Below, piece after piece: positions 18,174 through 18,780 of a DNA stretch of 64,000 nt. The notes below the pieces were generated by a model. The model ran no database searches. It saw only the letters and a program-made list of their open reading frames with translations, and had not been told where the DNA came from. Source of the DNA: Eledone cirrhosa (lineage: Eukaryota); the NCBI GenBank assembly GCA_964016885.1, contig OZ024741.1:42656001-42720000 (forward strand). Direction: 5' to 3'. The stretch's first letter is position 1. Each line of letters begins with the position of its first letter. The position numbers and the translations under genes were made by a program.

Positions 18174-18780
18174 ATTGTTATACTTTGGGAGGGTCATGTT
18201 GCCAATAAGAAACACACGCACCAGTTGCTTTCACTTCAATTTAATTTAATATATATTTATAAATTTACAAATTTATAAATTTCTGGTTGGTTGGTTGGTT
18301 CCACAACCAGATAGTTGTTTATATATATATATAGTCATAGTTCTTTCGTCACACACTCTGTGACCTCTTCAGTGACTGGGGATTTCTTTCTTCGTTTCTG
18401 TGCCTTTCCTTTCTTCTATCCTACGCCATTTTGTTTGTGTGTGGGTTGCCCACACACAAACAAAATGGCGTAGGATAGAAGAAAGGAAAGGCACAGAAAC
18501 GAAGAAAGAAATCCCCAGTCACTGAAGAGGTCACAGAGTGTGTGACGAAAGAACTATGACTATATATATATATACACAACTATCTGGTTGTGGAACCAAC
18601 CAACCAACCAGAAATTTATAAATTTGTAAATTTATAAATATATATTAAATTAAATTGAAGTAAAAGCAACTGGAGCGTGTGTTTCTTATTGGCAACATGA
18701 CCCTCCCAAAGTATAACAATATCGGTTTCAACACACGATTTCAGATAAAGAATCTTGCTAAACAAATTCAGAAACGAAAT
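18174..18780. mobile_element. pLTR-only foldback insertion of the main PLE family
   Basis: Inverted arms 18174-18445 and 18449-18720 with a 3-nt loop, plus 60-nt tail 18721-18780; matches the termini of 53721-58710; flanked by (TA)n. Confidence 0.9.
18517..18561 (+). ncRNA. minimal type I hammerhead ribozyme (mirror copy 18333-18377, minus)
   Basis: agtca-CUGAAGA-g-gtcaca gagtg tgtgac-GAAA-g aa c-UA-tgact; 5-bp stem I, 6-bp stem II, 2-bp stem III. Confidence 0.8.

Follow-up and report, generated by a model that had tools for sequence, protein, structure and literature searches.

Penelope-like elements (PLEs) with a C-terminal endonuclease (EN+), of the Neptune/Nematis type, encode a reverse transcriptase (RT) followed by a GIY-YIG endonuclease with two internal cysteines and a CX4CxxC linker; they form partial tandems with an adjacent inverted truncated copy, carry a tail at one end, have a hammerhead ribozyme in the pseudo-LTR (pLTR) and insert into microsatellites (PMC8557442). 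All these features recur in the element of Eledone cirrhosa described here. In Pen2a of Adineta vaga the pLTR takes in the first 12 codons of the ORF and the tail extends to codon 22, and Penelope of D. virilis has a 34-bp repeat, found once where the ORF begins and once at the 3′ end, with a variably truncated upstream copy, a comparable arrangement (PMC3846280, PMC2377424). For the Poseidon element PAc of the anole, the accessible text of Frangieh et al. (2024, PMC11167929) describes two RT start sites within the ORF that define the tail, an AT-rich target with both strands nicked and extended, and a predicted dimer; the element studied here is similar in these respects. It was proposed that a circle made by the hammerhead serves as template of more-than-unit PLE cDNA; minimal hammerheads cleave poorly in vitro and those of type I are thought to act as a dimer, according to the accessible part of that article (Cervera and de la Pena 2014, PMC4209133). 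From its accessible text, a 2026 preprint (10.64898/2026.07.22.740005) links non-LTR retrozymes to pLTRs.

The window is the whole 64,000-nt stretch of DNA that was analysed. We found that 18172–18782 is a head-to-head PLE insertion in an (AT)n microsatellite, and that its right arm, 18448–18782, is the terminal repeat and tail of a high-copy Penelope-like retrotransposon (family A). For the comparison of the window with itself by BLAST, simple repeats were masked (an unmasked run was swamped by them). Unless window numbers are used, positions are given relative to the A of the ATG in the coordinates of locus L063. The relevant features of the window are as follows.

16720–18171: (AT)n microsatellite, left flank of the target.
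18172–18446, minus strand: left arm, with the YY1-like motif, hammerhead, 5′ UTR and first 26 nt of the ORF (short end).
18333–18377, minus strand: mirror hammerhead of the left arm.
18448–18782, plus strand: right arm, the sequence of the left arm plus a 60-nt tail (long end, ATG+86).
18462–18470, plus strand: AAAATGGCG, a YY1-like motif conserved in families A and B; the 5′ ends of short arms cluster just upstream.
18517–18561, plus strand: minimal type I hammerhead found by pattern scan, predicted cut after A18556.
18697–18780, plus strand: first 28 codons of the RT-endonuclease ORF, MTLPK...QKRN.
18723–18782, plus strand: tail, the 60 nt separating the two ends (ATG+27 to +86).
18783–18958: (AT)n microsatellite, right flank of the target.
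51436–51619, plus strand: short fold-back copy of sister family B, ATG 51536, long end.
51652–53373: second family A pair (51652–51953 minus strand, end +26; 51953–53373 plus strand, end +86).
53721–57330, minus strand: long 5′-truncated family A arm with ORF body (RT, GIY-YIG), 3′ UTR, hammerhead and end +86.
57353–58712, plus strand: inverted partner of the preceding arm, end +26.
62229–62716, minus strand: arm of sister family B that has a hammerhead of its own (core 62533), ATG 62312, end +84.

The insertion is a palindrome centred on 18447, which the first-pass annotation did not mention; its arms differ at 4 of 275 positions and the left one ends at ATG+26. After the 28 codons, which run to 18780, the ATAT is common to the element and the (AT)n run, so the end of the right arm lies at ATG+84 to +86. 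Both arms begin about 14 nt upstream of the AAAATGGCG motif. The first-pass annotation had described a hammerhead, its cut at 18556, an ATG at 18697 about 140 nt further on, 28 codons, and a sister family with its ATG at 51536, all of which are present; a second sister copy, given as 62231–62311 on the minus strand, is indeed an ORF-start copy, with its ATG at 62312, one base outside that range. The order it gave for the inserts (ORF body, 3′ UTR, ribozyme, 5′ UTR, ORF start) is seen in longer copies, for example 53721–57330 (minus strand), but not in 18172–18782, which has no ORF body. The right arm is 98.5–98.8% identical to copies with intact ORFs, which form the youngest subfamily. Micro-insertions of family A were also seen at 4770–4820 and 2310–2345, each combining a short inverted fragment of the tail end with a small number of bases from around the ATG that stop at +26, and these appear consistent with one end of each kind per insertion, a rule described below.

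Other elements were observed in the window. A 421-residue frame of a 5′-truncated non-LTR reverse transcriptase with a FADD motif lies between TA runs at 15371–16636 (plus strand), and broken reverse transcriptase frames of other LINE-like elements, split by (AT)n, are found at 42722–44031 and 50552–51426 (minus strand). At 31732–33317, inverted repeats of 198 bp (95% identity) surround a transposase-like frame (32501–33028, minus strand); by resemblance we take this element to be Tc1-like. A dispersed SINE-like short repeat with 70–95% identity is present in at least 12 copies (8152–8576, 19040–19258, 21960–22143, 23275–23499, 28260–28934, 31096–31713, 59156–59490, 61180–61610). Further fold-back insertions, which adjoin TA runs and have no sequence relationship with families A and B, occur at 827–1111, 19770–19993, 33378–33958 and 46817–47045. 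The C-terminal end of a different GIY-YIG-type ORF (63546–63926) lies in 63400–64000 (minus strand) together with a GCGCATGCGCAG box (about 63415) that families A and B also have, and this element is probably a third PLE family.

The hammerhead at 18517–18561 consists of helix I AGTCA/TGACT, the core CTGAAGA at 18522, a bulged G, a 6-bp helix II, GAAA and a 1-bp helix III, with the cut predicted after A18556, 141 nt upstream of the ATG at 18697. The assignment rests on the pattern scan and on helix changes relative to family B, namely two-sided changes at two positions in helix II and one in helix I, which is a weak comparison of six rows, one of them misaligned. The feature expected of a PLE pLTR, a hammerhead, is thus present by pattern and helix II covariation, with cleavage as a prediction. 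Among the 150 of 161 Rfam matches listed for the window there was no hammerhead family; these were only miRNA matches driven by microsatellites, below threshold. The heritable variants of the ribozyme, considering all family A loci, spare the core and affect loop 2 (G/A), loop 3 (A/G) and the nucleotide at the cleavage site (A/U, CUA or CUU). The subfamily with CUU at the cleavage site accounts for 10 of the 13 start-site stops described below, a link confounded by subfamily age and pattern choice.

We looked for copies that end at the predicted cut. First-pass arms ran through it in 80 of 84 cases and upstream repeats of tandem copies in 37 of 40, with stop rates there equal to the background, and an indel at the cut was found in at most 1 of 224 spanning copies (the regular expression used would miss large ones). 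Segments at L222, L232 and L258 begin at −132 to −134, again at background rate, and a reverse-transcription stop at the hammerhead cut was rejected. Since the copies pass the cut without stopping, a cut and unligated RNA is not the usual template, in agreement with what had been argued from the single locus.

In partial-tandem copies, MTLPK...QKRN continues in frame through IVSLSQ... to LPPKF...KLRW. The first-pass annotation had suggested this continuity, with the region LLLPPKF..KLRW, and it is clear that the 28 codons are the true N-terminus of the RT ORF and are under purifying selection, as had also been proposed: between one family A and one family B copy, dN was 0.139 and dS 0.665 (ratio about 0.2). 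In the remaining ORF, dN between an A and a B copy was 0.23–0.36, with dS from 1.2 to saturated. The ORF-start stretch is also constrained as nucleotides, because 25 of its first 26 are identical in the two families. At L066 the frame runs for 1235 residues without a stop and ends in NSNITTYN, and complete frames of 1265–1318 residues were found at 8 of 58 further loci. The ORF-continuing junction has 452 exact matches in the genome, at least 12 of which belong to one minisatellite; this is a 46-bp repeat of 12 units built from the tail/ORF junction (G000:C1:132947043–132947576). The ORF start of family B likewise continues in frame. The idea that the full protein is encoded only by multi-unit tandems or a circle was not borne out, a partial tandem being sufficient. 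At L069, the start codon is ATC in the upstream and downstream repeat alike.

The element encodes a single ORF of 1235–1318 aa with the RT followed by a GIY-YIG domain with CCHH-type cysteines between GIY and YIG. In L260 the motifs lie at residues 215 (PPKF), 569 (DKSG), 893 (YVDD) and 1164 (VYSIRCTEGQCRNKNIVYIG), and the linker between RT and endonuclease is CIDKKCITC at 1142, which is CX4CxxC, of the CX2-5CxxC type; the motifs were read by eye against PMC8557442. A relative with 38% identity begins MALKPINYGYNTR, in register with the MTLPK start, and the best named of 44 protein relatives is from Octopus vulgaris (68% identity). Searches of Pfam gave only a below-cutoff match to RVT_1, and no match for the intact ORF of L066. 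In family A, an insert of about 190 residues, of low complexity and rich in Asn, Thr and His, precedes the RT (L066 residues about 255–445); family B has a similar one and most relatives have none. It resembles the N-rich inserts of Adineta PLEs and sets family A apart from the Neptune/Nematis-type PLEs, to which its linker motif points (PMC8557442). One gene model of Octopus vulgaris, "dynein regulatory complex subunit 6-like" (P0041), has 77% identity over 20% of the RT-EN query and is possibly an exonised fragment of an element. Folding of the ORF-start region, done without shuffled controls, gave no convincing structure at +26 or +86.

A 32-mer spanning the ATG had 23,128 exact matches in the genome (3.0 Gb) and its reversed control had none, so the ATG stretch is not a chance occurrence. 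Exact matches to the two ends numbered 12,137 for +26 and 13,148 for +86. We sampled all 71 loci behind the first 100 of the 32-mer matches, of which 69 could be aligned, giving 112 terminal arms (L146 and L197 had no scored arm). Beyond the ATG, 57 of 120 segment ends in this first-100-match sample lay at +26 and 56 at +86. The tail is often described in the literature as present at one end only, and it is optional in the Pen2a and Penelope papers (PMC3846280, PMC2377424); here the family has over 20,000 ends, and of 78 insertions with both ends, 75 had exactly one +26 and one +86 end. The rule was followed by 35 of 37 unbiased head-to-head pairs, the tailed arm being the longer in 18 of the 35, and by 40 of 41 tandem loci, four of them with a shortened or imprecise end. 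All seven family B pairs also had one end of each kind, although two of these are probably one duplicated locus. At L072/L073 (G000:C5:87936000–87953300), two inverted copies of one insertion junction have outer ends +86 and +26; this locus was excluded from the counts.

The tail measures 60 nt (58 nt in family B), compared with 30–40 bp in the Neptune/Nematis-type PLEs (PMC8557442), and where Pen2a takes 12 codons into its pLTR and 22 with the tail included, the element of E. cirrhosa takes 8–9 and 28–29 (PMC3846280, PMC2377424). Both of its ends finish in AATAT, which matches the (AT)n target, and 95 of 105 sampled ends adjoin AT runs. In PAc, by contrast, the accessible text places the starts about 111–118 nt into the ORF and describes them as not homologous to the target (PMC11167929). 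The two arms of a pair agreed on subfamily alleles, with 13 of 329 discordant against 45% between loci. This pattern suggests that both target strands are nicked and that each primes, through a few base pairs, on RNA of one kind at positions separated by 60 nt, which is what a pair of RT active sites would produce. In the literature covered, which took in a small part of the subscription papers, we found no count of the one-of-each rule and no twin-priming model for PLEs.

We then consider the 5′ ends of short copies. Arm stops were concentrated at −222..−246 (13 of 69 against 3.5 expected; p 0.01 after scan correction), just 5′ of AA(A/G)ATGGCG at −228, and the same pile-up was seen among the 30 top matches to the flagged stretch. 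Both arms of 18172–18782 start at −242/−246. In family B the ends piled up at −267..−285, before the same motif in an otherwise different UTR. An upstream GCGCATGCGC box, which we presume to be NRF1-like, is also common to the two families. None of nine arms in the pile-up had a partner longer than −246 (permutation p 0.007). The contrast between stopping and passing was clear in the young subfamily only (9/6 against 0/12; p 0.65 and 1.0 in the other two), in a sample partly chosen by similarity. The sequence CAAGATGGC is the YY1 site that positions L1 starts, according to the accessible part of PMC5381506. The pile-up at the YY1-like motif is thus a probable transcription start, about 95–100 nt upstream of the cut. 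Because their arms start there, upstream of the ribozyme, the class of insertions that includes 18172–18782 was likely made from the 5′ part of a linear RNA with the hammerhead uncut. The first-pass annotation had offered a religated circle or a tandem as template; over-unit copies are circle-like, as described below, but linear, uncut RNA is the most likely template for this locus.

The tandem copies behaved differently. The set consisted of 18 of 21 loci found by similarity and 58 loci from the first 100 junction matches, with 73 scorable upstream repeats; L071–L073 (truncated or rearranged) and L221 and L254 (second stretches of counted loci) were left out. A partial-tandem pLTR, variable 5′ truncation and an adjacent inverted copy were seen in these 73 loci. 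Upstream repeats went beyond −246 in 49 of 73, and of these 49 none stopped inside −222..−246 (Fisher p 0.0007 against the 13 of 69); 19 exceeded 1 kb and the longest reached −3803 (3.8 kb). Only 1 of 33 inverted arms of tandem loci stopped in that interval. Past 600 nt, the stop rate was similar in the first and second pass, about 1 per kb, and three loci (L220, L253/254 and L260) held two or nearly two units. Between an upstream repeat and its own downstream repeat, subfamily sites disagreed in 12/904, 27/911 and 8/151 cases, compared with 32–47% between loci, and this agreement held on the 3′ side of the cut as well. Terminal tail and ORF start were concordant at +42 in 46 of 49 copies (38.3 expected) and had codon changes in common, for example MALPK. 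Recurrent differences between upstream and downstream repeats were non-directional (64 same, 61 opposite). It seems that over-unit copies were made as if from a template without a 5′ end. In a linear lineage the repeats would drift apart and the upstream repeat could only shorten, so the template would have to be re-read, on a circle or by a precise jump.

The matching of repeats has to be read with gene conversion in mind, as patchy identity tracts were visible at L216 and L232. The 39 private alleles common to both repeats were first taken as proof of re-reading and were downgraded after these tracts were seen; they are not clean evidence, because conversion confounds the comparison. Seven alleles present in the downstream and inverted arms and absent from the upstream repeat, and nine private changes in the upstream repeat of L081, are easier to reconcile with a linear donor or with conversion than with a circle. 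At seven young loci, 7 differences to the own repeat stood against 30 to the nearest other in 11,606 sites, two of these loci (L230 and L264) having no margin, and overall the own repeat was strictly the nearest in only 15 of 36 cases. A three-way test of 34 loci counted 87, 73 and 70 changes confined to a single arm, an even distribution, and every combination of two arms out of three was represented (7, 4 and 2, with 6 from the fold-back junction of L235 dropped from the second); the linear appearance of the first 10 loci was gone on 34. An apparent pile-up of 5′ ends at −366/−374 was due to a subfamily indel at which the alignments broke (the pieces were joined manually for seven loci), and recurrent upstream/downstream differences at −327..−304 were the same artefact. 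No clear strand-transfer signature was found when the copies were examined by zone.

The explanation we prefer, whose probability we regard as evenly balanced, is that two templates are used, a linear uncut RNA for short copies and a hammerhead-made circle for over-unit copies, with priming internally at +26/+86. Transcription would start from an internal promoter at the YY1-like motif, which precedes the cut by about 100 nt. Transcribed from a partial tandem, the RNA would carry two minimal hammerheads, which would cut as a dimer and free a monomer of 4.0–4.3 kb with the whole ORF; for L260 the predicted monomer has a 138-nt leader, 1268 codons and 336 nt to the next cut, 4281 nt in all. In PAc, according to the accessible text of PMC11167929, the hammerhead cuts 26 nt inside the ORF; here the cut lies 132–141 nt upstream of the ATG, so the cut monomer holds the whole ORF. 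The insert would be permuted relative to the monomer, the monomer itself not. Once ligated, the monomer would have no 5′ end and would template long and over-unit copies; one arm could run more than one round and so restore an intact gene together with the upstream repeat. On RNA left uncut, or with a single hammerhead, copying would go back no further than the start, giving short arms, and two RT active sites priming at +26 and +86, with AATAT paired to the two nicked strands of the target, would yield head-to-head pairs. The stronger form of this proposal, that the ribozyme acts as a switch between a 4-kb coding circle with rolling-circle rebuilding of the pLTR (from two-hammerhead RNA) and promoter-to-tail copies (from uncut RNA), with the two RT active sites priming 60 nt apart, is tentative, its probability falling somewhat short of even. 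Several published observations count against a hammerhead-made circle. Canonical hammerheads are absent from Naiads, which build tandems and tails of the same form; minimal hammerheads cleave poorly in vitro; a 2947-nt transcript of D. virilis Penelope starts in the upstream repeat; and in the anole PLE, as far as the accessible text of PMC11167929 goes, insertion in vitro was unaffected by hammerhead mutants and no reads ended at the cut.

The same DNA as from a circle would be obtained without ligation if the RT, having primed downstream, reached the 5′ end of a linear RNA, be it the transcription start or the hammerhead cut, and jumped precisely to the corresponding point on that RNA or on another one. 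Such a virtual circle accords with the formation of these structures in Naiads, which lack the hammerhead, and with uncut RNA as the main substrate of the anole PLE in the accessible part of PMC11167929. The disagreement between repeats also climbs towards the ATG (1.3%, 3.0%, 5.3%), and 5 of the 7 alleles confined to downstream and inverted arms lie between −286 and −108. If jumps failed now and then, however, some upstream repeats would be expected to terminate where transcription starts or at the cut, and only 0 of 49 and 3 of 40 did; a long partner would be expected for some start-site arms (none of 9 had one), and two separate lineages for the sequence 3′ of the jump, which instead follows subfamily alleles. 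Errors at the junction, seen at the cut in at most 1 of 224 by a search blind to large ones, also speak against it, and we consider the jump unlikely, if the strongest of the alternatives. Less probable still is that long-tandem donors give uncut read-through or multimeric transcripts, with inherited upstream repeats homogenised by gene conversion and unequal crossing over, with the hammerhead either a passenger or used for something else. The published anole model (in the accessible text of PMC11167929) has a multi-copy mRNA, conversion tracts are visible and multi-unit loci exist (L220, L253/254, L260), but such donors make up 3 of 58 loci, and the upstream repeat could only shorten each round, so that a rebuilding route would still be required. 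Moreover, the junctions are seamless, not (AT)n insertions, and in young copies three arms are near-identical over 1–2 kb (0/1189 at L245, 1/2113 at L262).

At the other extreme, every copy, including 18172–18782, might come from a cut and religated circle, the pile-up at −222..−246 being a hot spot of joining or stalling at a CA-rich stretch. There is no stop at the cut, several pile-up junctions show CA/TG microhomology, and the interval of the pile-up was picked after the data were seen. A hot spot should, however, also stop upstream repeats (0 of 49) and the inverted arms of long insertions (1 of 33); in family B, which lacks the CA stretch, the ends gather at the same motif, and this motif resembles the YY1 site positioning L1 starts in the accessible part of PMC5381506. 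We regard a circle for every copy as highly improbable. The first-pass annotation had named reads across the CUA site as a back-junction test of the circle; these cannot discriminate, because all genomic copies are already continuous there.

Compared with what is known, a terminus that overlaps the ORF start (pLTR plus tail) is a published hallmark of PLEs, here found in a new family. We found a C-terminal endonuclease, partial tandems with an inverted copy, a one-end tail overlapping the ORF start and a hammerhead motif, as in EN+ PLEs; Naiad/Chlamys elements, in contrast, have an N-terminal endonuclease and no canonical hammerhead. Non-LTR retrozymes, in the accessible text of 10.64898/2026.07.22.740005, are non-coding, non-autonomous tandem repeats of hammerhead units, whereas the present element is coding and autonomous, and its sampled copies are inverted pairs, mostly truncated, or partial tandems. 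The circle is an existing hypothesis from 2014, whose accessible text (PMC4209133) also has a minimal type I hammerhead; here the DNA copies give it indirect support for long copies, and it is probably inapplicable to 18172–18782.

With over 20,000 ends, partial tandems in the hundreds and intact ORFs in a young subfamily, the family provides countable rules, namely one +26 and one +86 end per insertion, and short copies limited by a start site as against unbounded long ones, which narrow the mechanism and name the RNA species to seek. If the circle exists, an autonomous animal retroelement related to telomerase would transpose through a circular intermediate that codes for protein. If the ribozyme indeed acts as a switch, this would answer how the pseudo-LTRs of PLEs regenerate and what their hammerhead is for.
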